64,000 nt of DNA from Candidatus Omnitrophota bacterium. GTDB taxonomy: Bacteria > Omnitrophota > Gorgyraeia > 2-02-FULL-51-18. A program made the translations under genes and the position numbers. The stretch is taken from the NCBI GenBank assembly GCA_016197155.1, contig JACPWF010000006.1:9511-73510 (forward strand). The letters run 5' to 3'. The notes beneath the pieces are model-generated. The model was not told the DNA's origin. It did no database searches and saw only the letters and a program-made list of their open reading frames with translations. Of the stretch, positions 17,201-40,074 are shown piece by piece (the stretch's first letter is position 1; every line of letters starts with the position of its first letter).

Positions 17201-19073
17201 TCGGAGCGGTGAGTGCCAAGTACACGGCTGGGCGCTTTTTCATGTCGGCCAACGTGGAACCCTCCTTGATCACCAGCGCCCTCAGAGCCATGCGGTAAAA
17301 ACGGTCTGTCTTGGCCAAGCGGAGGAGTTGTTCAAAAACATCCGTGTTGATTGTCAGTTCCCGCTGGTCCGGTCCCTCAATCGCGCGATCGATCCGGACA
17401 GCCGCCGCGCCCACCGCCTCATTTTTATCGCGACGGGTTCCGGCGGAAATAAAAACTTTGTTGGGGACATTCAAAAATTCATTCACCCACCCCCGCTCTT
17501 CCCGGCTCAAGCGATCCGAATTCCTAAAAAATTCTCTCAGGCCCCGAAGAATCTTTTCCGGACGGTTGTCCGCTGAGACGATGGCCGGGCCTTGAATAGA
17601 TTTAACCGGAGGCGCGGCATCCTCTTTCACTTCCAAAAAACGATAAACGAAACAAACGACCGACAATGAAACTGCGAATATTACTCCCCCCAAAAGCAGA
17701 TCTCGTCTGTTCACCAAATACCTTCTATTGGGTTCGGAGTGATCGTTCGGATCCTGTGCGGACAGCCTCGCGGCGAACAACCGGCTCATTGAATAACCTT
17801 GAACCAAAAGCGCGTAAATAACCGGGCGTGTCAGCCGGTCTAAATCCAGCTGTGCCGGATTAGACGAGTTTCTATGAGCTTGAATAGCGGAAACCGCCTC
17901 ATTTATCGCGTCATTATTCAGGCTCAGCGTTGAAATGAGCTCAACGATTTTCTCGCTGAATGGCTTCTGCCGGGGAAATTCTTGTTCTTCGGGTCTTATT
18001 TTTATGAACCAATTGTTCAACAGCTTTCCGACCTGCGAGATCCTTATTTCTTCGTCGTTCAATCGATTTCTTTTTTGTTCTAATTTCAAATTCTCTTGAT
18101 AATGATAAACGGTCGATTCATAAACGTCATGGGCTTCCCTAAAAATCTCTTCCTGGTTTGGGTAAACTTTTTTTAATATTCCCCACACCGCATCAAAAGT
18201 GACGTCGCTCGTCTGCCGGCCGGGGGTGACGGGTACATTGGTATAACCTGTGATACTCGCCAATCTCGCCCCGCCGGTTCCATGTTGCCAAGCGCTGGCC
18301 TCGTTCCTCAAACTCGCCAACCGCGCGGCGGCAAGCGGTTCAAAAATGGGCAGTGCCCGAACCCCTGAGACAGCCGGGGTCAGACCCCTGTCCGGCGATG
18401 GCCGGTGAGGGGTCAGGCCCCTCAAGGGCTCCAAAAGCACCTCTTCATATTTTTTCTGACTCGTTTCGGACGTGACATTCGGCGTGAGAACGACGTAGGA
18501 CCAGCCTTTTTCCTTGAATAATTTTTTGAGATGCGCGGTGTGGTAGCCGCCCGCGATGAGAATGGCCGCCTTCGGCGTCCGGAGAGTGGATTGTGCCTGC
18601 CTGCCGGACAGGCAGGGAGAGTGGGTCGTGGATTTATCCACCATCCACGATCCACCATCCACGATCCGCTGTGTATTTCTTACAAACGCCCTGTCTCTGG
18701 CATTCACAGACCCATAAAACCGTCTCAGCAATTTTTTCCCGTCCTCCAAAATATTTTTGCTGGGCACCATGTCCGCAAAACACCCGCGGTCGGCAAGCTC
18801 ACGGTTCACAAAAGCCAGCGTCGAGAGCGTCGAGAAATCTTTTTCGTTGAAATCAAACAGACGGAATTCCTTGGAGGACATCTGGATCCGGTAAGCACTT
18901 TCCAAAAGCCGCAGGTAACGGTCAATCGCATGTAGGGTCGGAGGGGTCAGAGGCCTCCGACCCCTTTTTAGAATGACGGAATACACCCTCTCCTCCGTCC
19001 GCTCCGACTCATTCAGAAGTGTTTTGTAAGTGACAGAACAAAAAATTCTTTTTTGTTCTGTCATCCCGAGCAA
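8229..19073 (-). CDS. Giant multidomain protein (up to 3,614 aa) with a GT5 glycogen/starch-synthase-like domain and a GH15 glucoamylase-like domain; the 5' end is ambiguous
   Basis: A single uninterrupted 10,845-bp ORF. GT5 motifs: [13 protein letters not shown] (KTGGL type), [14 protein letters not shown], and the C-terminal [39 protein letters not shown]. GH15 motifs: [24 protein letters not shown] (catalytic WEE) and [31 protein letters not shown]. One hydrophobic helix lies near aa 445 ([22 protein letters not shown]). About 1,700 C-terminal residues are unassigned. Start candidates are TTG 19073, ATG 19064 and ATG 18884. Confidence 0.85.
   Translation of the reverse strand: [3614 protein letters not shown]
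8231..8266. repeat. Direct repeat copy 2 (the true 3' end of the giant gene)
   Basis: Matches 7531-7566. It encodes the last 11 codons plus the stop of the giant ORF. Confidence 0.8.
18935..18964. repeat. REP-like GC palindrome GGGTCGGAGGGGTCAGAGGCCTCCGACCCC
   Basis: A member of the palindrome family that also occurs at 50798-50828 and 56551-56572. It lies inside the maximal giant ORF but upstream of its ATG at 18884. Confidence 0.6.
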
Positions 19074-20403: not shown

Positions 20404-21036
20404 ATGTCTGAAGCCGCATCCTTGGATGTGTTTACCATCGTGCTTTTTGCCCTTCGCTGGCTGCATTTCATTTTTGGCATCACCTGGATTGGCCTTCTTT
20501 ATTTCTTCAATTTCGTGAACGGCCCCTTCCAAAAAACCCTCGACGCCAATACCAAAAAAATCGTCGTTCCTCAGCTCATGCCGCGGGCGCTGTGGTGGTT
20601 CCGCTGGGGCGCCATGATCACGTTCCTTTCCGGATGGGCGTACATCGGAATCAAACTTCACGCGAACGGCGCGGGCCTGACGGGCGAAGGCGGTCTTTTG
20701 ACTTCAACCTGGGGTCAATGGATCTCGCTCGGCGCGCTTTTTGGAAGTGTGATGTGGTTTAATGTGTGGTTTGTTATTTGGCCGGCTCAACAAAAATTGA
20801 TCGCCTGGACCAAAGCGGGTCAGGCGCCGCCTGAAATGGCCGGACTCGCCGCCAAAGCCGCCAAACGTTCACGCATCAACACTTATCTCTCGGTACCGCT
20901 TTTATTTTTCATGGGAGCCGCCAGCCACTTTCCTTCGTTCAGCTGGATAACGGCAGTGATCGTGATCGCCATCGGCTTTGTGCTTGTGTGGCATCTCATA
21001 AATAAAGTTGCGCCAAAGGTGGGTTCGAATTTTTAA
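20404..21036 (+). CDS. Integral membrane protein, HemJ/CopD-like (DUF420-type) family guess
   Basis: 210 aa with 4-5 TM helices. RWLHFIFGITWIGLLYFFNF resembles the HemJ TM1 (conserved His). An AAGGAG Shine-Dalgarno precedes it. Confidence 0.6.
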   Translation: MSEAASLDVFTIVLFALRWLHFIFGITWIGLLYFFNFVNGPFQKTLDANTKKIVVPQLMPRALWWFRWGAMITFLSGWAYIGIKLHANGAGLTGEGGLLTSTWGQWISLGALFGSVMWFNVWFVIWPAQQKLIAWTKAGQAPPEMAGLAAKAAKRSRINTYLSVPLLFFMGAASHFPSFSWITAVIVIAIGFVLVWHLINKVAPKVGSNF

Positions 21037-21903
21037 CTAGAAAGTAAAATCAACACCTTTTCTCTCTCGGGGCTCAACGTGAACTTTCTGCGTTTGGGCC
21101 CCGAGTTTTTCATGCCAGGCCTCAATCACATAATCCCCCGGCGGCAGGTTTTTGATTTCAAATTTTCCGTTCTCATCGCTCACCGCGAAATACGGGTGCG
21201 CGAGCACCCCGATGTAGCCCGTCATCCACGGGTGCACGTCGCATTTTAAAGGCACCATCACCTCCGGCGCCGAAAAACTCTTCGTCTGCTTCATTCCCTG
21301 AAACGGCAGGCCCAAATTCCACGGCCTTGAATTTTTCGGAAACGAGTGAATGTTGTGCAGGGTCGGGTCTTCATTCAGAAAAATAACCGGCTGGCCCACC
21401 TGCGCGCCCGTCACGTGCGGCAGGTAAACACAGCCTTTATTTTCGATCGTGACGGGTGCGGCGGGCGGCGGAAAATTCATTCCCTCGAGCCCTTCTTTCA
21501 CGTAGACAAAAACATTTTGCACGGCGCCGTCTTTCACCAAAAGCTCCTCGGAATAAAGCGGCTCTTTGTGAAACACCGAACATTCGGGGTTGCCTTTAAT
21601 GGACAATTCTTTTGGCGCGGGCGCCTGGCCGGTGAATAAAACTTTTCCGGCGAGCGTGGCCGCGGTTGAGGGGTCAAAAGCGGATTTGGCCGGCGCTTGA
21701 GAAACGGCCGACTCGGGAGACGGCGTTTCCTTCTTTGCGCAACCGGAGGTCACCACCGTCATTGCGAGGAGGAGCGAAGCGACGACGAAGCAATCTCCAC
21801 GACAAAGATTGCTTCGCCCCTTCGGGGCTCGCAATGACAGCTGACTCACGCTTCCACCTTTATCGTCAAAATCAAATCCCCGGGATGATTGCAGGTGTGG
21901 CAA
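21037..21903 (-). CDS. Lipoprotein with a cupredoxin-like (amicyanin-type C-x2-H-P-W-M) motif; start uncertain
   Basis: A lipobox ([11 protein letters not shown]) is present. [11 protein letters not shown] resembles the amicyanin copper-site motif CTPHPFMRG. The ORF's 5' end overlaps the J-domain gene by 58 bp, so the true start is probably an internal alternative codon. Confidence 0.55.
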
Positions 21904-22472
21904 ACTCTTCCTTGACGGGCCAGCCTCAACTTTTTCCCCGAAGAAATCCCGGCGGGAATTTTCACGGTGATTTTCCTGCCGTCATTCATCGAAAAACTGA
22001 CTTCACCGCCCTTTTGGGCCCTGGTTTTCGAAACTTTGAGCGTGGCTGTCAAATCCGAGGAAACTTCTTCGGATATTTCTTCTTCGCTGTCAAAACGTCC
22101 CCGCGAACCGGCTCCTCCTCCGAAAATATCCTCAAAATGAAAGGAACGGCCGCCGCCCTGGCCTCCGCGAAACGCCCGGAGAATTTCTTCAAAATTAAAA
22201 TCCTGCGCGCCTTGAAAACCCTGCGCGGACCCGCCGCCGAAGCCCCCCGAAAACCCGCCTTTTTTGTAGGCGTCGTAGTCAGCGCGTTTTTTGGCGTCGC
22301 TTAAAACGTAGTAGGCCTCGGAGATTTCCTTGAACTTTTCCTCGGCGGATTTGTTGTTGGGGTTGGCGTCGGGGTGAAATTTTTTGGCCAGCGACCGGTA
22401 AACTTTTTTAATTTCATCCGCGGACGCCTTTTGACCGACGCCTAAAATTTCGTAATAATCACGCTTTGGCAT
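21846..22472 (-). CDS. J-domain protein (DnaJ-like with a G/F-rich region, no zinc finger)
   Basis: DYYEILGV...HPD in the J domain, followed by a GGFGGG-rich segment. The CxxCxGxG repeats are absent. Confidence 0.85.
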
Positions 22473-23496
22473 GGACCAAAACCTTGTCCCGTCCGCCGTA
22501 GCGGGCGAACCATGGCTTTGCGCCTTTGTCGAGCACCGCGTTCAGAGCCTGGATATTTTTCACGCCGCGGTCCGAAAGCCAGGCCTCGAGCGCCTTCGCC
22601 CCCTCCTTGGCGTACACGGGCACCCCGTCCTTCCACGTCGCGCGGCCGCAGAGCACACCCGCGAAATTCACACCCGCGCTGATCGCCAGCTCCAGACTTT
22701 CTCTGAAAATGTCGTCGCTGACACCGGCCGAAAGATAGATGAACGGTTTTTTCGTGCAGGCGTCCTGCCGTTTGAAAATCGCCCGGGCCTCGTCCCAGTC
22801 GTAGGCGGCCTCTTTTCCGTTAAACGCCTTGGAGCCCTTCAGAAATTTCACGTCGATGGGAATTTCCACCTTCAGCACGTCGACCTTGTAGCGGTCCTTC
22901 GAAAATTCCTCCATGCTTTTGATGACGACGTCCGGCTTGATTTTGGCGTACGCCAAATCTTTCGCGTCGCCGCCCTTGGGGTCGTAGCCGACAAATTCCA
23001 GAAAAAAAGCGATGTCCGCCTCTTCGCATTCCTTGCCGATGCGTTCCATGATCTCCTGTTTTCTTTGATTCACTTTGGGATCATCAAACGGAGAATAATA
23101 CAAAAGCACTTTCACGCAGTCGGCGCCCTCTTCCTTGATACGCCTGGCGCTGTAACCGTCGATGAAGGTCGGGATGCGTCCGGCGCTCGTGTCGTCGTAA
23201 CCGGTTTTTTCGTAGGCCAAAAGGAGACCGGCATTTTTCGCGCGCGCCTTCGCGGCGGGCAGGCCGTATTCGGGGTCGAGCAGGATCGCGCTCGCGTGGG
23301 GCGTCAAAACTTTCGTCACGGCGGTTTTGAATTCCTCAAGCATCTGCCGCGTGACCTGGCTGTCGGGAACGCCTTTGGCCTTCGCGATGGATTTCTGCAG
23401 GGACCCGCGCTGGTCCATGGCCGCGGCGCTGATGACCCCTTTTTTATTGGAAACCGCCTCCAGACTTTTCAATTTGCCTTCAGAAAGGGTGATCAC
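22459..23496 (-). CDS. Class I aldolase of the LacD/tagatose-1,6-bisphosphate aldolase family
   Basis: 345 aa. [34 protein letters not shown] and GVLCGRATW are close to the LacD consensus. Confidence 0.85.
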
Positions 23497-23523
23497 CTTT
23501 TATCGCTCCTTTTGTTTCGCACA

Positions 23524-24621
23524 TTATACACTAAACCGAAAATGCATCACATCCCCGTCCTCGACCACGTACTCTTTGCCCTCGAGACGGAACCGGCCTT
23601 TTTCCCGCGCGCCCTGCTCGCCGCGATAACGCACAAAATCGTCGTACGCGATCACCTCGGCGCGGATGAATCCCTTTTCAAAATCCGAGTGAATTTTCCC
23701 CGCGGCCTGGGGCGCCGTGGAGCCTCCCTCGACCGTCCAGGCGCGGTTTTCGGTCTCGCCCACCGTGAAAAACGCGATGAGGCGAAGCAGTTTGTGTCCC
23801 TCGCGCGCCAGCTGGTCGAGCCCCGATTCTTTCAGGTTCATCGCCTTTAAAAATTCCCCGCGCTCATTCGGCTCAAGTTTTGAAATTTCCTCCTCGACTT
23901 TTCCGCTGATCGCGATGACCGCCGAGCCGTCCTCGGCCGCCTTTTTTCTCACGGCCGTCACGTGCGGCGTGTCGGGCCGGCCGAGCTCGTCCTCGGCGAC
24001 GTTCGCGACGTAAAGAATGGGTTTGTCCGTGAGAAAATGGCTCTCTTTCAAAAGCGACCGTTCCTCGCCGGACAACGCCGCCTGCCGCGCCGTTTTTCCC
24101 TCATTAAAATTTTTCTCGCAGAGCGACAACGCCGAGAAGACCTGCGCCGCTTTTTTGTCGCCGGCCTTGGCGGCTTTTTCCCATCGGACTTTCATTTTGG
24201 CGAGCGTTTCCAGGTCCTTCAGGATGAGTTCGGTTTTGAGGACTTCCATGTCCCGCGGAGGATCGACCGTGCCGCTCACGTGGACGATGTCCTTGGATTC
24301 AAAACAGCGCACGACCTCGATGATCGCGTCGACCTCGGCGATGTGGCTGAGGAACTGATTGCCCAGGCCCTCGCCGACGCTCGCCCCCTTCACGATGCCC
24401 GCGATGTCGACGATCTCGATCGAGGTGGGCACGACTTTTTTCGTGGGAACGATTTCCGTCAGCACCTGCAAGCGTTCATCCGGCACGGCCACGACACCGA
24501 CGTTCGGATCGATTGTGGCGAACGGGTAATTCGCGGCGAGGACCGAACTGCGCGTGAGCGCGTTAAAAATCGTGGACTTGCCGACGTTCGGCAGGCCGAC
24601 GATGCCGCATTTAAAACCCAT
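23524..24621 (-). CDS. ychF: Ribosome-binding ATPase YchF
   Basis: MGFKCGIVGLPNVGKSTIFNALT, NYPFATIDPN and the C-terminal TGS domain are present. Its start overlaps the GH57 stop (TAATG). Confidence 0.95.
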   Translation of the reverse strand: MGFKCGIVGLPNVGKSTIFNALTRSSVLAANYPFATIDPNVGVVAVPDERLQVLTEIVPTKKVVPTSIEIVDIAGIVKGASVGEGLGNQFLSHIAEVDAIIEVVRCFESKDIVHVSGTVDPPRDMEVLKTELILKDLETLAKMKVRWEKAAKAGDKKAAQVFSALSLCEKNFNEGKTARQAALSGEERSLLKESHFLTDKPILYVANVAEDELGRPDTPHVTAVRKKAAEDGSAVIAISGKVEEEISKLEPNERGEFLKAMNLKESGLDQLAREGHKLLRLIAFFTVGETENRAWTVEGGSTAPQAAGKIHSDFEKGFIRAEVIAYDDFVRYRGEQGAREKGRFRLEGKEYVVEDGDVMHFRFSV

Positions 24622-26129
24622 TATTTAATCCCAACTTCTAACTTCCAACTTCTAACTTTTTTATAAATATCCGCGCCCGTCCCCATTTCAGGAAGGTTGC
24701 TTTTGGCATCCGCCAATATTTTCAAAAAAGGCGGCTCGATTTCATCCGGGACATACGGCTGGACAAGCTCGGCGGCGCGCGCCGCGAATTTCATGTTCTG
24801 GACCGGTTCGATCCCCGAGAGCTCGTCAAAAAACCACCCGCAGCTCGTGAACATGAAAAGCGCGAATTTTTCGGCCTCGAGCAGATTCCATAATTTCGTT
24901 TCCTCTCCCGGATTCAAATTTTTTCCGGCCTGCCGCGCGAGGAATTTTTCGCGGCCTTCTTCGGAGCCGTCGAGCATCACCTCGATGTAATCGTTTCTGG
25001 CGCCCCAGGGGTCTTTCAGGAGACCGCCGGCCTGCGTTTCATAAACGTCATCCACGATCTTTTTTAAAAAATCAAACGCGTCCCGGAGCGGCGCGCGCCA
25101 TTTTTGATTCCAGCCTTCGTGGGAGGCAACATGACAACCGCAGTCGGACCGCCAGCGCTCCACGCCGTGCGCACAGCTCCAGGAGCTGTTCTCGTGAATG
25201 TCCGCTTCCGATTGCGAACCCGCCTTCGCCAAAAATTCCGCGAAATTGACCAGGTGCGCCAAATGATAGTCGCGGATTTTTTTGAAGCCGTAGGCGATCG
25301 CCATTTCCCCGAACCGGTGATGATGCCCGAAGGATTCCCCGTCCGTCGCGGTGGAAACCAATTGTTCCGCCTGGCGGTGGCTAAAGGAAGTCAGTAATTT
25401 GTAAACGAGTTCATCGCCGTTGTGAAGCAGTCCCTGAAACGCGATCGCCCGCGAAAGCGGCGCGTCGTAGAAAAAAACGTGAAACTGCCGCCCGTGGTCC
25501 AGCACCATGCGATAGGCCTGGCGCGTGTCCACCGTCTCGTGACGCCGGTTCTGCCATTCCGACCCAAAACCCAGACGGCGGACGCGCTTGGCCTGATGCG
25601 GCGCCAAAACCGTGAAAAGAATCCCGTGCTCGGCCATGACATTGAGCGTCTCTTTGTCCGCGGCGGTTTCGGAAAGCCACATGCCCTCGGGTTTTCTTTT
25701 GTAATGGAATTCGAAATCGCGGATGCCCCAGATCACCTGCGTGATTTTGTCACGGCGCGAAGCGAGCGGCATGATGACGTGGTTGTAAACCTGGGCCATG
25801 GCGTTGCCGTGGCCGCCCCGTTCGGAAATACTGCGGCGATCAGCGTCGAGGATGGCCTCGTAAACGGCGGGATTTTTTTTGCGAAGCCAGCTTAAGAGCG
25901 TCGGGCCGATGTCAAAACTGAGATAAGAAAAATTGTTCACGCGCTCTTTGGTCTGCCCTTTCGGATCGAGAACCGGTGCGCGCGTGTTCGGGGCGTAGCA
26001 TTCCTTTGTGATGCGCTCGTTCCAGTCATGGTCGGGGGCGGCGCTGTCTTCCCTCTCGACCTCGCCCGTCCAGGGATTTTCGCGCGGCGGCTGGTAAAAA
26101 TGGCCGTGGATCGTGATGTGTTTCTTCAT
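24621..26129 (-). CDS. Glycoside hydrolase family 57 enzyme (alpha-glucan branching/amylase-type)
   Basis: The N-terminal HGHFYQPPRENPW is the GH57 signature, and a GESFGHHH region follows. It lies 9 bp after luxC in the same operon. Confidence 0.88.
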   Translation of the reverse strand: MKKHITIHGHFYQPPRENPWTGEVEREDSAAPDHDWNERITKECYAPNTRAPVLDPKGQTKERVNNFSYLSFDIGPTLLSWLRKKNPAVYEAILDADRRSISERGGHGNAMAQVYNHVIMPLASRRDKITQVIWGIRDFEFHYKRKPEGMWLSETAADKETLNVMAEHGILFTVLAPHQAKRVRRLGFGSEWQNRRHETVDTRQAYRMVLDHGRQFHVFFYDAPLSRAIAFQGLLHNGDELVYKLLTSFSHRQAEQLVSTATDGESFGHHHRFGEMAIAYGFKKIRDYHLAHLVNFAEFLAKAGSQSEADIHENSSWSCAHGVERWRSDCGCHVASHEGWNQKWRAPLRDAFDFLKKIVDDVYETQAGGLLKDPWGARNDYIEVMLDGSEEGREKFLARQAGKNLNPGEETKLWNLLEAEKFALFMFTSCGWFFDELSGIEPVQNMKFAARAAELVQPYVPDEIEPPFLKILADAKSNLPEMGTGADIYKKVRSWKLEVGIK

Positions 26130-26138
26130 TGGATTATT

Positions 26139-27125
26139 TTACCATACCCAATCCGCCAAATTGGGCCGGCCGTCATGCCGCCGGGCGAGCAAGGGATGCT
26201 GCATTTGTCCCGCGCGGCAGATCCGGTTCGCTCCGAGTTTCACCAGGCGCGCCGCGAGCCTTTTTCTCTCGGAGGGCGCCGCCTCAAGCGCCACCGTCGA
26301 CAACGCCCCGCGCAGATGGGACAGCGACCAGAAAACGCTTTCTCTTTTTTCAAACGCCCTGACGAGGTACGGCTCTTTCAACATCCGCGAAAAAGACTTG
26401 GGTGACACCTCTCCCCCTTTTTCGACGTAAATCACCGACGGCGAAAGACACCCGCGCCTGTCCATCATCCAAATATCATGGGCGGCCTTCCCGGCCAGAT
26501 TCCGGATATTTCTTTTTTTCATCGCCGCGCGCGTGTAAAAACCCAGGCTCACGCGGTGCCCGTGGCCGATGAAGGGTTTCGCGGGCGGAAGGTCTTTTTG
26601 GATGCGCGCCAGGGTTTCGTCGCTTCCGTAGGCGACGACAAGGCCGGCTTTCTTATAATGCCGGCGCAGAGAGGCTTTTGATTTTGGCGGCAAAAGGCGG
26701 TGCCCCGCGGCCAAACGAGGGTCAATCCCCCGGAGCGACGCGAGGTAAACGTCGAGAAACCCCCCGTCGCGGCCGGAGACCTTGCAGATATTTTTGCTTT
26801 TCACGAGGATTCCAAAAACAAAGCTGAAGATCGCGGGGTTGGGCACATTGCCGGGGAGGATGTGCAAAATAATGTCCGGGCCCCTGACCTGACCGTCGAG
26901 ACGAAGCGGATTTCCGAACTCGAGCCGCAGAAGCGCGAGGATTTTTTTCCCGGTCAGCTCCGAAAAAATGGAATCGAGAATGGCCTCCGCCTGCTTCCGG
27001 CTAAAATGGGATCGCGTGACAAGTTTTTTTAGAGCCTTTTGGCGATAAGAATAATTTTTCGAAAGCCACCGTGCCGAAAGCCGCCCGATTTGCCGGACAA
27101 TTTCTTTGATCGGCCGCGGATTCAC
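26139..27125 (-). CDS. LuxC-family acyl-CoA/acyl-protein reductase (fatty-aldehyde forming)
   Basis: PF05893-like core (ILHILPGNVPNPAIFSFVFGIL..., GSDETL). The listed ORF is over-extended by 111 R/G-rich codons into the luxE-like gene. The start is trimmed to the GTG overlapping the upstream stop (GTGA). Confidence 0.72.
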   Translation of the reverse strand: MNPRPIKEIVRQIGRLSARWLSKNYSYRQKALKKLVTRSHFSRKQAEAILDSIFSELTGKKILALLRLEFGNPLRLDGQVRGPDIILHILPGNVPNPAIFSFVFGILVKSKNICKVSGRDGGFLDVYLASLRGIDPRLAAGHRLLPPKSKASLRRHYKKAGLVVAYGSDETLARIQKDLPPAKPFIGHGHRVSLGFYTRAAMKKRNIRNLAGKAAHDIWMMDRRGCLSPSVIYVEKGGEVSPKSFSRMLKEPYLVRAFEKRESVFWSLSHLRGALSTVALEAAPSERKRLAARLVKLGANRICRAGQMQHPLLARRHDGRPNLADWVW

Positions 27126-28153
27126 GACGCCAAAAACTCCTCGTACGCCGTCGAGCACCCCCGGATCTCGGCCTCGGGCGCGCGGCCCAAAAGCTCGAAC
27201 CCTTCCCGATGGGCCAGGCCCAGGTCTTCGGTCTGCACGGCCATCACCGATCCGCGATTGGCCAGGTCCCAATGCCTCAAAAGTCCTTTTTCCCCTTTTT
27301 TGGCCTCCTCCCCCGTGGCCGGATCGATGACGAGCGTCCGCGTCCACGGCGGCCCCTCGAACGGCCGGCCGCCCGCGCTGTAAAATTGGCTCGAGAGCTC
27401 GGTCATGCCGTACTCGCTCACGCAAAAATTTTCGGGGATGCCCAGTCTTTTTTTGCATTCGACGTAAAGGGATTTTTTGGAAATTTCCCGGGCCCTCCCC
27501 TTGAATCCGCCCGTTTCAAACAGGCGGCTTTTGGGAGGAAGTTTCACGGAAATTTTTTTCTCATTCAAAAAATCAAGAAAACCTTTGAGGGAAAACGCCG
27601 TCGCGAGAATGAGGACCGGCCCTTTTTCTTTTTTTAAGTCCGCGAGCATCTCTTTGAAAAAAAACCTTCCCCGCCGCGCGTAAAATTTTCCGGGCGGCCG
27701 GGAATACCGGCGGTTCACCACTCCCATCATGTGCGACAGCGAGGAATCCGCGGCCTCTCCGGGAGAAGCCATTAAAAAGAAAAAGCGAAGGCGCGCGTTG
27801 TCGAAGAGGAGATGCTTTTCGAACGGCGGCCCGATCGCGGCCTCATAGTATTTCAACGTGTCAAAAAAATGCGCCCCGCGCCCCCGGCCCGTCGTGCCGC
27901 TGGTGCGGAACAGCTTCACCGCTTTTTTGACGGGGAAGGTCGTGAGCACCAGGTTCTTGAACCCGTCCGTCGGGATGGCGGGGATCTCTTTCCAGTTTTT
28001 CAGCGAGCCGGGCTTTTTGCCCTCCGCCAGGCAGAAGCGCCTGTAGTTTTCGTTGCGTTCGAACTGGCGCCGGAAAAGTTGGAGGGCCGGCGTTTCGAAA
28101 TCGGCGGGGTCTAGGAAATTTTTTTGAGGATCTTTTCGAATTGCTGGACGCAA
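27122..28153 (-). CDS. LuxE-family acyl-protein synthetase (acyl-AMP-forming)
   Basis: FRTSGTTG, SEYGMTEL and the LuxE-like N-terminus (FLDPADFETPALQLFRRQFERNENYRRF) are present. The ORF's 5' end overlaps the aminotransferase gene, so the start is tentatively trimmed to TTG 28153. Confidence 0.7.
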   Translation of the reverse strand: MRPAIRKDPQKNFLDPADFETPALQLFRRQFERNENYRRFCLAEGKKPGSLKNWKEIPAIPTDGFKNLVLTTFPVKKAVKLFRTSGTTGRGRGAHFFDTLKYYEAAIGPPFEKHLLFDNARLRFFFLMASPGEAADSSLSHMMGVVNRRYSRPPGKFYARRGRFFFKEMLADLKKEKGPVLILATAFSLKGFLDFLNEKKISVKLPPKSRLFETGGFKGRAREISKKSLYVECKKRLGIPENFCVSEYGMTELSSQFYSAGGRPFEGPPWTRTLVIDPATGEEAKKGEKGLLRHWDLANRGSVMAVQTEDLGLAHREGFELLGRAPEAEIRGCSTAYEEFLAS

Positions 28154-29448
28154 AAGGAGATCTCTTTCTCGGAAATCACAAACGGGGGCGTAATGGAAAT
28201 GACGTCGTGATGCTCGCCGGCCGGCAAAACGAGGATGCCGCCACGCAGGCACTCCTCGATGAAAAGCCGCGCCTTGGCCGGGGGCTTGCCGAATTCCACG
28301 CCGATCATGAGCCCCGCGCCGCGCACGTCGGCGATGAGGGGGTATTTTTCTTTCAATTTCCAGAGTTCCCTACGGAAAAAATCGCCGAGCGATTTCGAGC
28401 GGTCCACGAATTTTCTTCTTTCAATTTCTCCGATCACCGCGAGGGCAATCGCGCACCCCAGCGGATTTCCCACGTAGGTGCTCGTGTGAATGGCGTCCCC
28501 CGTCGACGCGCCCCAGGAATGCATCACGCGGGTCGTCCCGACGCAAACCGAAATCGGAAACCCGCCGCCCATCCCCTTTCCCAGACACAAGAGGTCGGGA
28601 ACGACACCGCTCTTGTCCATGGCAAACATCGAGCCCGTTCGTCCGAAACCCGTGAACACTTCGTCCGCGATGAGAAGGGCCGCCTCTTCGTCGCAAACGG
28701 CGCGGAGCTCCTTTAAAAAACCGGGCGGCGCGACGTGGATGCCGCCGCGGCCCTGAATGGGTTCAAGGATCACCGCGCCGATCCGGTGCGGCGACCGGCG
28801 GGATTTATGAATAATTTTTTTAACGGCTTTTAAATCGGAAAACGGCGCGAACGAGACGTGCTTCCCGAGCTGTTTCGCGAAAGGCTTGCGGAAATCCGCG
28901 CGGTGCGTGACATGGAGCGCCCCATAATTCAAACCGTGATACGCGCGCTCAAACGCGATGACCCCGGTTTTTTTCGTGTGCATCACGGCGGTTTTGAGCG
29001 CGGTCTCGACCGCCTCGGCGCCCGTCGAGGAAAAAAAACTCTGGTTCAGATTTCCGGGCGTGATCTCCGAAAGTTTTTTGGCCAAAAGCACCTTCACCTC
29101 GTTCGGATGCACGTCCCCCAGGCCGTGGATCATTTCCGCCGCCTGGCGCCGCATCGCCTCCTGCACGACGGGCGAGGAGTGCCCGATCCCCATCACGCCG
29201 AAACAGCTCGTGAGATCGAGGTAGCGGTTCCGGTCCACGTCAATCATGTTGGCGCCGGATGCTTTTTTTAGAAAAATGGGGAAAGGTTCATGCGTGTAGG
29301 TGAGTTGGGGACACTCGAAGCGCTTCAAAAGCTCGGTGAGTCTGAGGGACTGCGGGCCCGGAATTTTCGTGCGGATTTTGGGAAGTAAATTTTTTGGGAG
29401 CGGCTTTTCTTTTTTCCCGATTTTAAAGGGAAAACGGAATAATTTCAA
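28111..29448 (-). CDS. Class III (omega-type) PLP aminotransferase
   Basis: 445 aa. EPIQGRGG, DEVFTGFGRTGSMFA and the CLGKGMGGG lysine region define the fold-type I class III family (ArgD/GabT/omega-TA-like). Confidence 0.88.
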   Translation of the reverse strand: MKLFRFPFKIGKKEKPLPKNLLPKIRTKIPGPQSLRLTELLKRFECPQLTYTHEPFPIFLKKASGANMIDVDRNRYLDLTSCFGVMGIGHSSPVVQEAMRRQAAEMIHGLGDVHPNEVKVLLAKKLSEITPGNLNQSFFSSTGAEAVETALKTAVMHTKKTGVIAFERAYHGLNYGALHVTHRADFRKPFAKQLGKHVSFAPFSDLKAVKKIIHKSRRSPHRIGAVILEPIQGRGGIHVAPPGFLKELRAVCDEEAALLIADEVFTGFGRTGSMFAMDKSGVVPDLLCLGKGMGGGFPISVCVGTTRVMHSWGASTGDAIHTSTYVGNPLGCAIALAVIGEIERRKFVDRSKSLGDFFRRELWKLKEKYPLIADVRGAGLMIGVEFGKPPAKARLFIEECLRGGILVLPAGEHHDVISITPPFVISEKEISFCVQQFEKILKKIS

Positions 29449-30383
29449 TGCCCGGCCCCGAGAAATCGCTCCGCGTCGAGCGCGGCCATACAGCCCGTGC
29501 CGGCGGCGGTCACGGCCTGCCGGTATTTGTGGTCCTGCACGTCGCCGCAGGCGAAAACGCCGGGGACATTCGTCAGCGTGCCGTCGTGAACCCCGATGTA
29601 GCCTTTCGCGTCGAGCGCGACTTGACCCTTAAAAATTTCAGAATTCGGCGTGTGGCCGATCGCCATGAAAACGCCGTCGGTTTTTTTCTCGGAGACCGCC
29701 CCCGTTTTTAAATTTTTCAACACCACCGCCGTCACTTTTTTCTGCGCGGGGTCCTGGATGTCCGTCACGGCCGAGTCCCAGATGAAATCAATTTTTTTAT
29801 TGGCGCGGGCGCGGTCCTGCATGATCTTTGACGCGCGAAGCTCCGCGCGGCGGTGAACGATCGTCACGCGTGTCGCAAATTTGGTGAGAAACGTCGCCTC
29901 CTCCACCGCGGAATCCCCGCCGCCCACCACCACCACTTCTTTTCCCTTAAAGAAAAATCCGTCGCAGGTGGCGCAGGCTGAAACCCCGTGTCCCTGCAAC
30001 GCTTTTTCGGAGGGAATATTGAGCCAATTGGCCGAGGCGCCGGTGGCGATGATGACGGCATTCGCGGAATACTCTTTTCCGTCGGAAGTGACCCTGAAAG
30101 GGCGCTTCGAAAAATCGGCGGCCGTCACGTCCTGCTGAAGAAGCTCGGTCCCGAACCGCGCGGCCTGCTTGCGGAAAAGATCCATCATCTCGGGCCCCAA
30201 AACGCCTTCGGGAAATCCGGGATAATTTTCCACGTCGGTCGTCAGCATGAGCTGTCCGCCGGGCTGTCCGCCCTTGGCCAGGCCCTCGAAAAGAAGCGGT
30301 TTCAGATTCGCGCGCGCGGCGTAGATCGCCGCCGTGAAACCCGCGGGGCCGGAGCCGATGATGATGAGATTATGCGCCGTCAT
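29445..30383 (-). CDS. trxB: Thioredoxin reductase
   Basis: IIIGSGPAGFTAAIYAAR, the ACATCDGFF redox-active CATC motif and the GGGDSAVEEATFL NADPH site are present. Confidence 0.95.
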   Translation of the reverse strand: MTAHNLIIIGSGPAGFTAAIYAARANLKPLLFEGLAKGGQPGGQLMLTTDVENYPGFPEGVLGPEMMDLFRKQAARFGTELLQQDVTAADFSKRPFRVTSDGKEYSANAVIIATGASANWLNIPSEKALQGHGVSACATCDGFFFKGKEVVVVGGGDSAVEEATFLTKFATRVTIVHRRAELRASKIMQDRARANKKIDFIWDSAVTDIQDPAQKKVTAVVLKNLKTGAVSEKKTDGVFMAIGHTPNSEIFKGQVALDAKGYIGVHDGTLTNVPGVFACGDVQDHKYRQAVTAAGTGCMAALDAERFLGAGH

Positions 30384-30603
30384 TGCCGATCGCCTCGACG
30401 GGACAACCCTCTTTGGCTTCTTTGCACTGCGCCTCCTCTTCGGGTGTGACGGGCTGTTTTTTCACGAAAGAATAGCCGCCCGCCTGGTTGCGGTCAAAAT
30501 TTTGCGGGGCCGTCTGGCGGCACAGGTCGCAATCAATGCACTGCGTGTCGACGTAAAATGCCCCCGGCACATTTTCAGGATAACGATTGGCCTTGTCTGA
30601 CAT
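30370..30603 (-). CDS. Small ferredoxin (single [3Fe/4Fe-4S] cluster type)
   Basis: 77 aa. CIDCDLCRQTAP ... C ... EGCPVEAI follows the Cys pattern of Pyrococcus/Desulfovibrio-type ferredoxins. Confidence 0.8.
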   Translation of the reverse strand: MSDKANRYPENVPGAFYVDTQCIDCDLCRQTAPQNFDRNQAGGYSFVKKQPVTPEEEAQCKEAKEGCPVEAIGNDGA

Positions 30604-30685
30604 TGTTCCTCCATGATAAAAAGTTAGAAGTTAGAAGCGATCTCGTTTGCTACTAGCTACTAACTTCTAACTACTAACTAAATTA

Positions 30686-32170
30686 CTAACTCGGTAAATC
30701 GCTCTCTCCCATTAAATATTCATCCACCGCGCGCGCGGCGCCCCGGCCTTCGTTGATGGCCCACACGATGAGGCTTTGTCCGCGGCGCATGTCGCCGGCG
30801 GCGAAAACCCCTTTCACATTCGTCGCGTATTTTCCGTATTCGGCCCTCGCGTTCGACCGCTCGTCCCGCTCCACTCCCAAACCTTTCAGCACCGTTTCCT
30901 CCGGACCCAGAAATCCCATCGCCAAAAGCACCAGGTCCGCCGGTAAAAGCTTTTCGGTGCCAGGCACCTCTTTGGGAATAAAACGGCCTTTGTCGTCTTT
31001 TTGCCATTCAATGTTCACGATTTGAATGTGCCGGACATTCCCGTTTTCATCTCCCACAAATTTTTTAGCAGTCACCAAATACTGCCGCGGGTCATCCCCA
31101 AAAAGCGCTTTGGCCTCCTCCTGGCCGTAGTCGAGACGGTAAACTTTGGGCCACTGCGGCCAGGGGTTGTCGGCCGCGCGCTCGAGCGGAGGCCTGGGCA
31201 AAATTTCCAGCTGGATCAAACTTTTGCATCCGTGCCGCATCGCGGTCCCCACGCAGTCGGTGCCCGTGTCGCCGCCGCCGATCACGACCACGTTTTTTCC
31301 CGAGGCGGAAATCCCCGCGCCGTTTTTTTTATTGTCCAAAAGATTTTTTGTGTTCGCGTGCAGAAACTCCATCGCGAAGTGAACGCCTTTCAAATTTCTT
31401 CCCTCAATGGGAAGGTCGCGCGGCTTTGTGGCGCCCCCGCACAGAACAGCGGCATCAAATTCTTTCAAGAGTTTTTCCGCGGGATAGTTCCGACCCACTT
31501 CCGTGTTCGTCACAAACTTCACGCCCTCTTTCGCCATCAAATCCACGCGGCGCTGAACGATTTTTTTATCGAGCTTCGGATTCGGAATGCCGTACATGAG
31601 AAGCCCGCCGGCGCGATCGGCGCGCTCAAACACCGTCACCGCGTGCCCGGCGCGGTTGAGCTGGGCGGCGGCGGCGAGCCCCGCGGGACCCGATCCCACG
31701 ACCGCCACTTTTTTTCCCGTGCGAACGCCGGGGATCTGGGGGGTCACCCACCCTTCCTCAAAACCGCGGTCGATGATCGCACATTCGATATTCTTGATCG
31801 TGACCGGCGGCTCGTTGATGCCCAGGACACAGGAGCCTTCGCAGGGCGCCGGACACACGCGGCCGGTGAATTCGGGAAAATTGTTCGTTTTGTGCAGGCG
31901 GTCGAGCGCCTCGCGCCAAAGGCCTTTGTAAACCAGGTCGTTCCATTCGGGAATAAGATTGTTGACCGGGCAACCCTCGGCCATTCCCGCCAGGAGCGTC
32001 CCGGTGTGGCAAAAAGGGATCCCGCAGTCCATGCACCGCGCGCCCTGAGAGCGCAGTTTCTCCTCGGGCAGGCGCTCGTGGAATTCATCCCAGTCCCTGA
32101 TCCGTTCGCGCGGAGAACGGTCTTTGGGAAGTTCGCGCGGAATTTCTTTGAAACCGGTGGGCTTGCCCAT
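30686..32170 (-). CDS. gltD: Glutamate synthase (NADPH) small subunit
   Basis: 494 aa with an N-terminal 4Fe-4S Cys cluster ([10 protein letters not shown]..., CPAPCEGSC), an FAD/NAD Rossmann motif ([17 protein letters not shown]) and VFAAGD. Confidence 0.95.
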
Positions 32171-32173
32171 AAA

Positions 32174-35100
32174 TTAATTTCCGCCCACGCGGGACAGGTC
32201 GCGGACATTTTCCTCGAAGGCCGCCATGATCGCCTCCTCGCCGCTGAGGCCGGAGCTTTTCACGCGATCGAGCGCCTGGAGGACGCGTTTGTAATCTTTC
32301 GGGATCACGCGGACAAATCGGGGAACCATTTCTTCCCAGAGATCCAAAATGTGCCGCGCGCGGCGGCTCTGCGTGTGGCGCAAATACCGCTCAATCAGGC
32401 CGCGCACCTCGGCGATTTCCGCGGGGCCGGTCAATTTTTCAAGCTCCACCATCTGCCGGTTACAGCGGCCCGCAAAATCCCCGGCGGCGTCCAGCACGTA
32501 CGCGATCCCGCCCGACATGCCCGCCGCGAAATTCCGCCCCGTGCCGCCGAGCACGACCACCCGCCCGCCCGTCATGTATTCACAACCATGATCGCCGACG
32601 GCCTCGACGACCGCGGAAACGCCGCTGTTGCGCACGCAAAACCGCTCGCCCGCCATCCCGTGAATGTAGGCCTCGCCGCTCGTGGCGCCGTAGAAAGCGA
32701 CGTTGCCGATGAGGGTATTTTCTTCGGGTTTGAAAGTTGATTTTTTCGGCGGATAAACAATGATCTTTCCGCCTGACAGCCCTTTGCCGACATAATCATT
32801 CGCGTCGCCCTCAAGCTCGAGGGTGATCCCGCGCGGCACAAAAGCGCCGAAGCTCTGCCCCGCGGATCCCGTAAACTGAAGATGGATCGTGTCGTCGGGC
32901 AGTCCGTCGGCCCCGTGCCGGCGCGTGAGTTCGCTCCCCAAGATCGTGCCCACGACGCGGTTGGTATTTTTGATCGCCAGCGACGCCTTCACGGGTTTTT
33001 TGTCTTCGAGCGCCGGCTCGCAGAGCTTGAGAAGGGTCGTGTGGTCAAGCGCCTTCTCGAGCCCGTGGTCCTGCGGGATCTGGCAGTAGCGCCCCACCTC
33101 CGCCGGAACTTTCGGTTGATACAAAATTTTTGAAAAATCAAGGCCCTTGGCCTTCCAATGGTCCACGGCCTTTTTCACGTCGAGCCGGTCGACGCGGCCG
33201 ATCATTTCATTCATCGTGCGGAATCCCAGACGCGCCATGATCTCGCGGACTTCCTCGGCGATAAAGGTCATGAAATGGACAACGTGCTGCGGATCGCCGC
33301 TGAATTTTTTTCGAAGCTCGGGGTCCTGCGTCGCCACACCGACCGGACAGGTGTTCAAATGACACACGCGCATCATGATGCAACCGAGCGCCACGAGCGG
33401 CGATGTCGAAAATCCGAATTCCTCGGCGCCCAGGAGCGCCGCGATCGCCACGTCGCGTCCGGTCTTGAGTTGTCCGTCGGTCTCGACGGCGATGCGACTG
33501 CGCAAATTATTCAAAACCAAGGTCTGATGCGTCTCGGCCAGTCCCAGTTCCCAGGGAATCCCCGCGTGCTTGATGCTCGAAAGCGGCGACGCGCCCGTGC
33601 CGCCGTCATGCCCGCTGATGAGGACCACGTCCGCGTGCGCCTTGGCGACCCCCGCGGCGATCGTCCCCACACCGACCTCGGCGACCAATTTCACGCTGAT
33701 CCGCGCGTTCCGGTTTGAATTTTTCAAATCGTGAATCAGTTCGGCCAGATCCTCGATGGAATAAATGTCGTGATGCGGCGGCGGTGAAATGAGCCCCACC
33801 CCCGGCGTCGAAAAACGCACCTTCGCGATCCACGGATAAACCTTGGCGCCCGGAAGCTGTCCGCCCTCGCCGGGCTTGGCGCCCTGGGCCATTTTGATCT
33901 GGAGCTCGCGAGCCTTCACCAGATACAGGCTCGTGACGCCGAAACGGCCCGAGGCCACTTGTTTAATCGCGCTGTTCCGCGAGTCGCCGTTCGGGTCCGG
34001 CGTGTAGCGCGCGGGGTCTTCGCCGCCTTCGCCGGTGTTTGATTTTCCGCCGAGCCGGTTCATCGCGATCGCGAGCGACTCGTGCGCCTCTTTGGAAATC
34101 GAGCCGTAGGACATCGCCCCCGTTTTAAAACGTTTCACGATCATTTCGACGGGCTCCACCTCGGCGATGGGGACGGGTTTCAAATCGGATTTAAAATCCA
34201 AAAGGCCGCGCAGGGTGCAGTGATGTTTCGATTGATTGTTCACGGCCTCGGAATATTCCTTGAACACTTTGTAATTTTTGGTGCGCGTGGAAAGCTGAAG
34301 CTTGTGAATGGTTTCGGGATTGAATAAATGAACCTCGCCGTCTTTGCGCCACTGGTATTGGCCGCCCGGGTCAAGCGCCAGGCCATCGGTCGAGCGCGGG
34401 GCAAACGCGTGATGATGGCGGCGCTTCACTTCCTCGGCGAGCGTGTCGATGCCCACGCCCTCGACGCGCGAGGCCGTCCACGTGAAATATTGGTCCACCA
34501 CGTTTTGATTCAACCCGATCGCCTCAAAGATCTGGGCGCCGCGATAACTTTGAATCGTCGAGATCCCCATCTTCGACATGGTTTTCACGACACCCTTCGC
34601 GACGGCCTTGGCATAATTTTTGACCGCGGTTTTGTGATCGATATTTTTTAAAATTCCCTGCCGGATCATGTCGTCCAGCGTCTCAAACGCCAGGTACGGA
34701 TTCACGGCCCCCGCGCCGTAGCCGACCAACAGCGCGAAGTGATGCACCTCGCGCGGCTCGCCCGATTCGAGCACGAGCCCGACCTTGGTGCGCGTGCCCT
34801 CGCGGATGAGGTGATGGTGCAGTCCCGACACGGCCAGAAGCGCGGGGATCGCCGCGTGGTCGGGGCCGACGCCGCGGTCGGATAAAATGAGAATGTTGAC
34901 GCCTTCTTTGATCGCGCCGCTCGCTTTTTTGTAAAGTTCGGCCAGCGACGCCTCGAGGGATTTCCCCCCGCCGCTCACTTTGTACAAAATCGGCAGGCTC
35001 ACGGATTTAAAATCCGGATGCCGCAGGTGGCGGAGTTTTTCAAATTCCTCGTTCGTCAAAACGGGACTTTTTAACCGGATCTGCCGACAGCTTTCCGGCT

Positions 35101-36772
35101 CGGGCTTTAAAAGATTCCCCTCCGGGCCGATCGTCGTCTCGGTGGACGTGATGATCTCCTCGCGGATGCAGTCGATCGGGGGATTGGTGACCTGCGCGAA
35201 CAGTTGTTTGAAATAATTATAAAGAAGCTGGGGCTTGTCCGACAAAACGGCCAGCGGCGTGTCCGTCCCCATCGAACCCACGGCCTCGACTCCGTCCTTC
35301 CCCATCGGCGCCATCAGGATCCGCAGATCCTCGTAGGTGTAACCGAAGGCCTGCTGGCGCACGAGCACCGCGCGATGATCCGGCTCGCGCGCGTGCGGGG
35401 CGTCGGGCAGTTTTTCAAGCGGGACCAAATTTTCATCGAGCCACTCGCGGTACGGATGCGCGCGGGCGATTTTATTTTTCAATTCCTCATCGGAAACGAT
35501 CCGGCCCTCTTCGGTGTCGATCAAAAACATCCGGCCCGGCTGGAGACGCCCCTTGCGCAGAATATTCTCCAGCGGCACGTCGAGCACACCCACCTCCGAG
35601 GCCATGATAACAAGGTCGTCTTTGGTCACATAGTAGCGCGAGGGACGCAGGCCGTTCCGGTCGAGGACCGCCCCGATTTGAACGCCGTCGGTGAACGCGA
35701 TCGACGCGGGCCCGTCCCACGGCTCCATGAGCGAGGCGTGAAATTCGTAAAAAGCCTTTTTGTCGTCCGGCATCGATTCATGATTCGCCCACGGCTCGGG
35801 GATCATCATCATCACCGCGTGCGCGAGCGATCGCCCGCCGAGCACGAGAAATTCGAGGCAGTTGTCGAACATCGCCGAGTCACTGCCGTCCTCGCAGATG
35901 ACGGGAAGGATTTTTTTTATGTCCGCGCCGAAAAGCTCCGACGCGCAGAGCGCCTCGCGCGCGTGCATCCAGTTCACATTGCCGCGAAGGGTGTTGATCT
36001 CGCCGTTGTGCGCGAGGTAGCGGTTCGGATGGGCGCGCTCCCAGCTCGGGAACGTGTTGGTGCTGAAGCGCGAATGCACGAGCGCCAAAGCGCTCTCGAC
36101 GGCCGGGTCGACCAGGTCCGGAAAAAACAGCTCGACCTGCTCGGACATGAGCATCCCTTTGTAAACGATTGTTCTGTGTGAAAGGCTTGAAATGTAAAAT
36201 GCGGGCAGGCCCGCCGTTTTCGAATAGCGGATCGCGTTTTCCGCGCGGCGCCGGATCACGTAGAGCTTGCGCTCAAACGCGAGGTCTTCTTTTATTTTCG
36301 GATTTCTTCCGATAAAAATCTGCCGCACAAAAGGCTCGGAGGCCTTCGCGGTGGGCCCGAGAGAACCGTTTCGCGTGGGAACCGTGCGCCAGCCGAGAAA
36401 GTCCTGGCCTTCTTCCCGAATGATGCCCTCAAAAATCTTTTCGCAGGCGCGGCGTTCTTTTTCATTGACTGGCAAAAACACCATGCCCACGCCGTACGCC
36501 CCCGCGGGAGGCAGGTTGATCTTGAGTCCGGAGCAGGCCTTTTTCAAAAAGGCATGCGGCACCTGCAACAAAATCCCCGCCCCGTCGCCGGTGTTGGCCT
36601 CACAACCGCAGGCGCCGCGATGGCGAAGGTTGACAAGCACCGTCATCGCCTGCTCGACGATTTGGTGGGATTTTTTGCCCTTCACATTCACGACAAACCC
36701 CACCCCGCAGGCATCTTTTTCGAATGCCGGGTCGTAAAGTCCCTGTTTGGAGGGGGCAATGGCTCTATTCAT
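32174..36772 (-). CDS. gltB: Glutamate synthase large subunit
   Basis: 1,532 aa. The N-terminus is the amidotransferase [27 protein letters not shown].... The FMN/3Fe-4S central domain and the C-terminal GXGXG ([17 protein letters not shown]) domain follow. Confidence 0.97.
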
Positions 36773-36837
36773 GGCTAACTTTTTAGTATATCAATAAGTC
36801 AGAGGGGATTTCAAAGGAAAAAGCGGGAAAAAGGGTG

Positions 36838-39715: not shown

Positions 39716-40063
39716 TCATGCCATTTGAAGCGGCGCCCTTTTTGAGTGGATAACCTTCCGTATCCGATTGGCGACCACGGGTTTGAGTTGGATGACCTTC
39801 ATCCGAACCGTGAAGCCGATCGCCAACAACACTTTTTCGAGCGTCATCACGTTCGCAAAATCTCCGCTTTCAATTTTGGAGATATGCTGTTGGGTAACGC
39901 CCACTTTTTCAGCCAACCGCCTTTGGTTCAGATCGTGTTTTATGCGGTACTCAATGATCCGTTTTACAATTTCCAGCTTCTGCTCTTCAAGCTCGTAAAG
40001 TTCTTTGAAATAGGGATCTTTTAATTTTTCTTTGAGATGCTTATCCACGCTTTCGATTCTCAT
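39716..40063 (-). CDS. XRE-family HTH antitoxin (HigA-like)
   Basis: NQRRLAEKVGVTQQHISKIESG HTH motif, directly downstream of a Gp49/HigB-like toxin gene. Confidence 0.75.
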   Translation of the reverse strand: MRIESVDKHLKEKLKDPYFKELYELEEQKLEIVKRIIEYRIKHDLNQRRLAEKVGVTQQHISKIESGDFANVMTLEKVLLAIGFTVRMKVIQLKPVVANRIRKVIHSKRAPLQMA

Positions 40064-40074
40064 GCCGGCTCCTC

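Follow-up and report, generated by a model that had tools for sequence, protein, structure and literature searches.

The locus

The window analysed here is the whole of a 64,000-nucleotide (nt) stretch of DNA from a Candidatus Omnitrophota bacterium (contig JACPWF010000006.1), and our subject is a run of three coupled genes on its minus strand, for a class III aminotransferase (AT), a LuxE-like acyl-protein synthetase and a LuxC-like acyl reductase. The initial annotation, made from the sequence, had proposed that the three form a translationally coupled operon for conversion of a fatty acid to a fatty aldehyde and then a fatty amine. The three open reading frames (ORFs) are confirmed at their positions, and the motifs it quoted (FRTSGTTG, SEYGMTEL, ILHILPGNVPNP, EPIQGRGG and DEVFTGFGRTG) are all found in the translation. 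The genes and their immediate neighbours are as follows.

28111-29448, minus strand: class III (fold type I) pyridoxal phosphate (PLP) aminotransferase, 445 amino acids (aa), TTG start, Pfam PF00202
27122-28153, minus strand: LuxE-like acyl-protein synthetase, 343 aa, probable TTG start, Pfam PF04443
26139-27125, minus strand: LuxC-like acyl-thioester reductase of the aldehyde dehydrogenase (ALDH) superfamily, 328 aa, GTG start, Pfam PF05893
29445-30383, minus strand: thioredoxin-disulfide reductase TrxB, which passes the TIGR01292 cut-off with 404.8 bits
30370-30603, minus strand: small 4Fe-4S ferredoxin, Pfam Fer4_13, a syntenic neighbour
24621-26129, minus strand: glucan-active enzyme with Pfam matches to GH57 and DUF3536, a syntenic neighbour

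Read along the minus strand the order is gltB, gltD, ferredoxin, trxB, AT, LuxE-like, LuxC-like, GH57/DUF3536, ychF, a DeoC/LacD aldolase gene and a DnaJ-like gene. The junctions are as tight as had been described. The trxB stop and the AT start share TTGA (a 4-nt overlap, read from the sequence), AT and the LuxE-like gene overlap by 43 nt counted from the in-frame TTG at 28153, the LuxE stop and LuxC start share GTGA (again 4 nt), and 9 nt separate the LuxC stop from the ATG of the GH57 gene. The mechanically called ORFs at 27122-28252 and 26139-27458 exceed the real genes, and we place the start of the LuxC-like gene at 27125 and not at 27458. Three observations support the unusual starts: the N-terminal peptide of the AT is kept in its homologues, the closest relative (L001) has an AT/LuxE overlap of the identical length, 43 nt, and the 328-aa LuxC-like product is identical to a deposited protein (P0001). 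Both the LuxC-like protein and the AT are 100% identical to deposited proteins of one Candidatus Omnitrophica metagenome assembly. A scan of 21000-37500 for promoters and terminators found terminator-like sites at the number expected by chance and no convincing site between the genes, which is neutral on co-transcription.

The three proteins

The AT matches Pfam PF00202 (Aminotran_3) at 3.2e-106 and 355.9 bits, and the PLP lysine Lys291 (LGKG) and pyridine-binding Asp262 (DEV) are invariant in the family (alignment A5). It falls below every NCBIfam equivalog cut-off (argD 317.6 bits for a cut-off of 410, GabT 288 for 506, putrescine AT 300 for 612), scores 288 bits with the PigE aminotransferase model, and does not have HemL among its 25 best NCBIfam families. 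Among solved structures it comes closest to putrescine AT, acetylornithine AT and GABA-AT, with scores that are alike.

In GabT, acetylornithine AT and ornithine aminotransferase (OAT), Arg398 holds the alpha-carboxylate of glutamate or 2-oxoglutarate and Arg141 the distal carboxylate. We aligned the AT family with E. coli GabT, using a GabT sequence that matches PDB 1sf2_A exactly. Each of the 15 family members has leucine at the position of Arg141 (HGR to HGL) and arginine at that of the gate residue Glu211 (QGEGG to QGRGG), while the position of Arg398 is Ser, Gln, Ala or Cys across the 15 and Ser in the window AT. A relocated arginine, Arg234, may bind the carboxylate of the amino donor. 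As the AT has no arginine for a distal carboxylate, its aldehyde substrate would itself lack a carboxylate, and is more probably neutral, hydrophobic or heteroaromatic than an amino-acid semialdehyde. The pocket thus argues against glutamate, aspartate and aminoadipate semialdehydes and appears compatible with alkyl, amino-alkyl and heteroaromatic aldehydes. The GFGRTG motif is like that of omega-transaminase and BioA types. The sub-cut-off scores together with the missing carboxylate arginines rule out an orthologue of ArgD, GabT, putrescine AT, OAT or LysJ, and HemL is ruled out by the absence of its model from the 25 best families, so that the AT is distinct from the ArgD, GabT and HemL groups into which it might have fallen. 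At the N-terminus the ATs of window type are extended by a basic, aromatic stretch, FxFPFKKKKxPLPKN (window 29370-29448, minus strand; A5 columns 1-40), which is absent from the ATs of the two other lineages described below (L093 and L175 types) and may bind membranes.

The LuxE-like protein matches the C-terminal part of the PF04443 profile (1.3e-11, 44.4 bits, cut-off 24.9). It is an ANL-type adenylating enzyme of 343 aa without the C-terminal subdomain and has the motifs SGTT, ETGGFKG, EYGMTEL and a C-terminal GR-x6-RGCS; its sole homologue in the PDB is 7xc6_E. In LuxE of Photobacterium phosphoreum the structure of the LuxC-LuxE complex draws attention to Lys238, Arg355 and a C-terminal TRxxKGCxLS motif with Cys364, the residue that carries the acyl group to Cys296 of LuxC (PMC9157457). 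These three LuxE residues are matched by Lys218 (ETGG-x-K; pairing from the 7xc6_E alignment), Arg324 and, nine residues on, Cys333 (R-G-C-S), all of them invariant in 11 LuxE-like sequences from three lineages (alignment A6).

The LuxC-like protein matches PF05893 at 3.6e-45 and 155 bits (cut-off 21). Its Cys226 (DRRGCLS) aligns with the acyl-accepting cysteine of 7xc6_A (LuxC Cys296), His317-Asp318 with LuxC His442-Asp443, and Asn93 with Asn162. An AlphaFold2 model (pLDDT 86.5, pTM 0.82) has 7xc6_A as its best PDB match, with a TM score of 0.87 and a root-mean-square deviation of 3.0 Å, and ordinary aldehyde dehydrogenases rank lower. By the available criteria of alignment and model the Lux homologues are not degenerate, and their catalytic residues are retained.

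Conservation of the three-gene order

The window lineage gave 18 distinct loci, 16 of them informative upstream of LuxE and 17 downstream of LuxC. The AT precedes LuxE-LuxC in 14 of the 16 (trxB-AT...LuxE-LuxC). However synteny in this lineage extends over the entire region, about 20 kb, so that adjacency within it proves little, and the weight falls on two other lineages.

In the first of these (L093/L094) the order is def-fmt-AT-LuxE-LuxC followed by grpE-dnaK-dnaJ, the genes of the trio being 3 and 2 nt apart; the AT (P0240) is 49% and the LuxC 29% identical to the window counterpart. In the second (L175/L176) it is DsbA-like-AT-LuxE-LuxC-RNase HII, where the genes of the trio overlap by 4 and 8 nt, and the AT (P0244, in the cluster of P0238) is 53% identical to that of the window. 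None of gltBD, trxB and GH57 is near the module in either lineage. GC content is 40% and 46% respectively, as against 55% for the window, and the DnaK of L093 is nearest to unclassified bacteria (78-79%) and then to Omnitrophica (73-74%). We treat both lineages as deep Omnitrophota-related branches and make no claim for a second phylum.

Three independent contexts thus keep the same three coupled genes, two of them in divergent lineages with unrelated flanks, and for this reason we consider AT-LuxE-LuxC a functional module. That the three are a coupled unit, as first proposed, is borne out, and the linkage of the AT to luxE and luxC holds in the divergent genomes L093 and L175. A wider unit does not hold. 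The initial annotation had described the operon as flanked by ferredoxin-trxB and continuing into GH57, yet these accompany the module in one Omnitrophota lineage only. GH57 follows LuxC in 12 of the 17 informative window-type loci, being missing from the other 5, and in 0 of the 2 other lineages. As both trxB and GH57 are missing from the L093 and L175 contexts they lie outside the module, and trxB, ferredoxin and GH57 are phylum-level syntenic neighbours and not module components. The suggestion that the product may be attached to a glucan likewise has nothing in its support, the GH57 linkage not being conserved, and use of the amine by GH57 or by a nearby 3614-aa ORF with GT5/GT1-GH15 domains was rejected since there is no conserved linkage. 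A response regulator, encoded next to the module in L093 and in many Omnitrophota loci, was considered as a fourth component and rejected, the similarity being generic (35% over 82 aa).

Two observations on the genes around the module may be recorded here. In one Omnitrophota relative (L003/L004, 4068-6887) genes for a MamF/MmsF-like protein, a VIT1 iron transporter and a GH2_C protein are inserted between AT and LuxE. Thiol-redox genes lie directly upstream in the window (trxB, 29445-30383) and in L175 (DsbA-like, 7934-8953), and AhpC plus FMN reductase genes take this place in L055 (4538-5122) and L062 (1456-2022). Such neighbours may be a coincidence, or may keep the two catalytic cysteines reduced.

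A sister family linked to QueD

Homologues of LuxC and LuxE in non-luminous bacteria are common, the LuxC-like profile alone giving 1434 clusters at 50% identity (E <= 1e-30). When the LuxC-like alignments were scanned against one genome per species plus metagenomes the returns were mostly from Verrucomicrobiota (L006-L008, L024-L092 and L095-L174). LuxE is upstream of LuxC in 106 of 112 of these loci, and a QueD gene is directly downstream of LuxC in 121 of the 131 that are informative, at a median distance of about 100 nt. An extra gene lies between LuxE and LuxC in 26 of 117, usually for an organic-anion-type major facilitator superfamily (MFS) transporter, and the flanks of LuxE-LuxC-QueD are otherwise variable. 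The QueD passes the TIGR03367 equivalog (102.9 bits, cut-off 89.25). In L082 the QueD gene is followed by a QueE-like gene, which was the single match when QueC, QueE and QueF were looked for near about 175 loci. One further locus, L109, has LuxE-LuxC with neither AT nor QueD, and its neighbours (a DEAD helicase, an Hpt-response regulator and a distant fatty-acid desaturase) are uninformative. The QueD linkage suggests that the Verrucomicrobiota clade, at least, reduces a carboxylic acid of the QueD pathway.

Proposed pathway

We think it probable, on the sequence data, that the three genes form a self-contained unit for turning a carboxylic acid into a primary amine (R-COOH to R-CHO to R-CH2NH2). 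The LuxE-like enzyme would adenylate the acid with ATP and move the acyl group to its own C-terminal Cys333 (RGCS), and its flexible tail would present this group to the LuxC-like reductase, which would accept it on Cys226, reduce the thioester with NAD(P)H and release the aldehyde. The class III PLP aminotransferase would then convert the aldehyde to R-CH2-NH2 with an amino acid as amino donor. Family membership, the catalytic residues kept and the three-gene order across unrelated contexts are established here, and each catalytic step and the direction of flux are what we infer.

As to the acid, an alkyl or fatty acid is a tentative candidate. There is a small chance that it is an acid of the QueD pathway, either 7-carboxy-7-deazaguanine (CDG) or 6-carboxytetrahydropterin, and a slighter one that it is of amino-acid or polyamine type, with something else accounting for the rest. 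Of the pathway first proposed for these genes, the sequence from acid through aldehyde to amine stands as the most likely reading, and it is the fatty nature of the substrate that is not supported, given the scores with the Lux equivalogs, the absent cleft element (both given below) and the QueD-linked sister family.

Several observations weigh against a three-gene pathway. Of the 14 window-type loci in which the AT precedes LuxE-LuxC only 3 have it directly beside LuxE, and in the other 11 one to three unrelated genes intervene, mostly a gene for a single-domain response regulator and otherwise GGDEF, abhydrolase, GH16 or MamF/VIT1/GH2 genes. Two loci (L022 and L013) have LuxE-LuxC without an AT nearby, gltD being followed in L022 directly by response regulator-LuxE-LuxC. 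In window-type genomes the AT always overlaps trxB by 4 nt, and it could belong to that other unit. There is no class III aminotransferase within 7-8 kb of more than 120 Verrucomicrobiota LuxE-LuxC loci. The window LuxC-like protein has lost about 80 residues after the strand that bears the catalytic cysteine, by comparison with homologues of 390-453 aa (alignment A1), and confidence in its model is low at residues 222-225, the loop before that cysteine.

Alternative explanations

The alternative that survives best, though we hold it to be doubtful, keeps the fatty substrate, with a long-chain fatty acid reduced to a fatty aldehyde that is then aminated; the resulting primary alkylamine might go into a lipid or a glucan conjugate. 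Myristic acid is the substrate of the one LuxC-LuxE pair that has been characterised, and TabE, which is LuxC-like, acts with the class III transaminase TabA to make dodecylamine. The leucine that replaces the distal-carboxylate arginine of GabT and the GFGRTG motif of the AT also fit an aldehyde that is not carboxylated and is possibly hydrophobic. However the Lux homologues miss the equivalog cut-offs by an order of magnitude or more, the LuxE-like protein scoring 41.8 bits with NCBIfam NF052244 (cut-off 550) and the LuxC-like protein 36.1 with NF052251 (cut-off 750). In LuxC the residues Trp111, Met114, Tyr291, Phe297 and Phe436 were mutated as lining of the hydrophobic C14 cleft, and the L-shaped acyl cleft is closed by a C-terminal element, P460-P488, of the neighbouring subunit (PMC9157457). 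By alignment the LuxC-like family has Ser, Ser/Lys, Val/Met, Leu and Pro respectively at the five positions, and it stops near LuxC residue 458 in the numbering of that paper, so that P460-P488 appears to be absent family-wide. Neither luxD or other acyl-supply genes, nor genes for acyl carrier protein (ACP), lipid synthesis or acyltransferases are conserved beside the module in the three contexts, the linked genes of the sister clade are those for QueD and an organic-anion-type MFS transporter and not lipid genes, and the linkage to GH57 is not conserved. A light-emission system of luxCDABE type was rejected, as no luciferase (luxA/luxB) or luxD gene was found among about 55 window ORFs scanned against Pfam and the neighbours are trxB and GH57.

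We think it unlikely that the AT is instead a housekeeping enzyme of amino-acid or nitrogen metabolism that follows gltBD, ferredoxin and trxB, with LuxE-LuxC making an aldehyde separately and the adjacency being inherited gene order. Several of the points listed above would then be explained, namely the invariable overlap with trxB, the unrelated genes that separate AT from LuxE in most relatives, and the two loci without an AT, and the AT is far better conserved (60-82% identity) than LuxC (36-62%). However in two lineages with no gltBD, trxB or GH57 around, the trio is still found with its genes overlapping or abutting, and the AT lacks arginines of the ArgD/GabT/OAT type and is under all equivalog cut-offs.

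Similarly improbable is a route to preQ1 (7-aminomethyl-7-deazaguanine) that bypasses QueC and QueF, in which LuxE-LuxC would reduce CDG to 7-formyl-7-deazaguanine and the AT would make preQ1 from it. In a close variant, which shares the same low estimate, the enzymes would act on the QueD product 6-carboxytetrahydropterin. The aminomethyl carbon of preQ1 comes from the carboxylate of CDG, and for that reason a single metabolite would explain the links both to QueD and to the AT. A bona fide QueD stands directly after LuxC in nearly all informative Verrucomicrobiota loci although the flanks otherwise vary, L082 runs on into the QueE-like gene, the organic-anion-type transporter is often between LuxE and LuxC, and an AT pocket without carboxylate-binding arginines would fit a neutral heteroaromatic aldehyde. 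Against this, the two links do not meet in any locus: no PTPS/QueD gene is present in the window or in any AT-linked Omnitrophota locus, and the QueD-linked loci have no AT. Only 1 of about 130 loci has QueE as a neighbour, frozen synteny inside one phylum could account for the QueD link, and we found nothing relevant in the literature on LuxC/LuxE with QueD or queuosine. Rfam gave zero matches at gathering score in the window and eight related loci, with no preQ1 or other riboswitch, and it is in part for this reason that we rate this route low.

It is very unlikely that the short LuxC-like gene of the window is a decaying, non-functional remnant, since its deletion of about 80 residues, which is shared with the nearest relative P0002, keeps the frame, both genomes have an uninterrupted ORF with 62% aa identity between them (near the 68% of GH57), Cys226, His317, Asp318 and Asn93 are kept, and the model, for all its low confidence at 222-225 beside the catalytic cysteine, is good overall and close to LuxC. 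P0004 and P0007 have deletions of intermediate size, which suggests that the catalytic domain shrank stepwise in one sublineage.

Comparison with characterised systems

Returning to the conversion of a carboxylic acid to a primary amine, which remains our preferred reading, the LuxC-LuxE complex of P. phosphoreum (PDB 7XC6) is the only solved homologue of both window Lux proteins. The two systems share an ANL N-domain with a short C-terminal cysteine tail, an ALDH-fold reductase, the residues equivalent to LuxE Lys238, Arg355 and Cys364 and LuxC Cys296, His442 and Asp443, and genes that are adjacent and translationally coupled. They differ in that identity is only about 18%, luxA, luxB and luxD are absent here and the scores are far under the equivalog cut-offs, and in that the window family is without the hydrophobic cleft residues and the C-terminal element for cleft closure and oligomerisation, with the extra deletion of about 80 residues in the window protein itself. 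The partners also differ, the pair being coupled to an AT here and to QueD in Verrucomicrobiota.

For the chemistry as a whole the nearest parallel is in tambjamine BE-18591 synthesis, where the LuxC-like reductase TabE, which groups with LuxC in a similarity network, and the class III transaminase TabA give dodecylamine. TamH and PigE are reductase-transaminase fusions with the same chemistry. The conversion proposed here is the same, from acyl thioester to aldehyde to primary amine by way of a class III PLP enzyme. However TabE/TabA, TamH and PigE take chains bound to ACP or peptidyl carrier protein (PCP) in secondary-metabolite clusters, whereas here the acyl group would be carried by the LuxE tail, ACP and a biosynthetic gene cluster are lacking, and the module is surrounded by housekeeping genes throughout a candidate phylum.

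The logic of COOH to CHO to CH2NH2 is also that of ArgB/ArgC/ArgD, LysZ/LysY/LysJ and fungal Lys2, with ArgD and LysJ as distant relatives of the AT. In the arginine and lysine routes, however, activation is by acyl phosphate, where here it would be by adenylation and an enzyme thioester, and the reductase has the GAPDH fold and not the ALDH fold; the AT lacks the arginines for an amino-acid carboxylate. QueC and QueF (CDG to preQ0 to preQ1) likewise convert, in net terms, a carboxylate carbon to an aminomethyl group, and the sister LuxE-LuxC family has its link to QueD, but the enzymes are unrelated, the intermediate is a nitrile and not an aldehyde, and the connection is purely inferential.

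Other features of the window

The remaining features of interest are all on the minus strand.

8229-19073: the 3614-aa ORF referred to above, with starch/glycogen-synthase domains (GT5 + GT1) and a GH15 glucoamylase domain; L001 has a giant ORF at the syntenic position
39716-40422: Gp49/HigB-like toxin gene paired with a helix-turn-helix antitoxin gene
44630-46201: 523-aa ThyX homologue with two Thy1 profile stretches and about twice the usual length, which may be a tandem fusion
46496-47095: a separate zeta-toxin-like kinase gene
57727-59393: ORFs of 375 and 180 aa with no Pfam match; GC is low here and nowhere else in the window (0.44 as against about 0.56)

Significance

No function outside bioluminescence is assigned to LuxC/LuxE homologues in a 2025 review of the aldehyde dehydrogenase superfamilies or in the literature that we searched, and in searches on LuxC/LuxE with AT or QueD, Verrucomicrobia, Omnitrophota or queuosine we found no description of either of the partnerships reported here. 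There are two such stable partnerships of LuxE-LuxC, with a distinctive class III AT in deep Omnitrophota lineages and with QueD in Verrucomicrobiota, and they give concrete hypotheses for what LuxE-LuxC homologues reduce. If a carrier-free system of three proteins does make the amine from a free acid, this would be a compact natural counterpart of the engineered cascades that join a carboxylic acid reductase to a transaminase. If the substrate is CDG, the annotation of queuosine biosynthesis would change in two phyla. It is a long shot that the LuxE-LuxC proteins of the Planctomycetota-Verrucomicrobiota-Chlamydiota (PVC) superphylum are QueD-pathway carboxylate reductases which, in company with an AT, would take CDG through 7-formyl-7-deazaguanine to preQ1, but if true it would give a new route independent of QueC and QueF, and the first housekeeping function for the widespread non-luminous LuxCE family.

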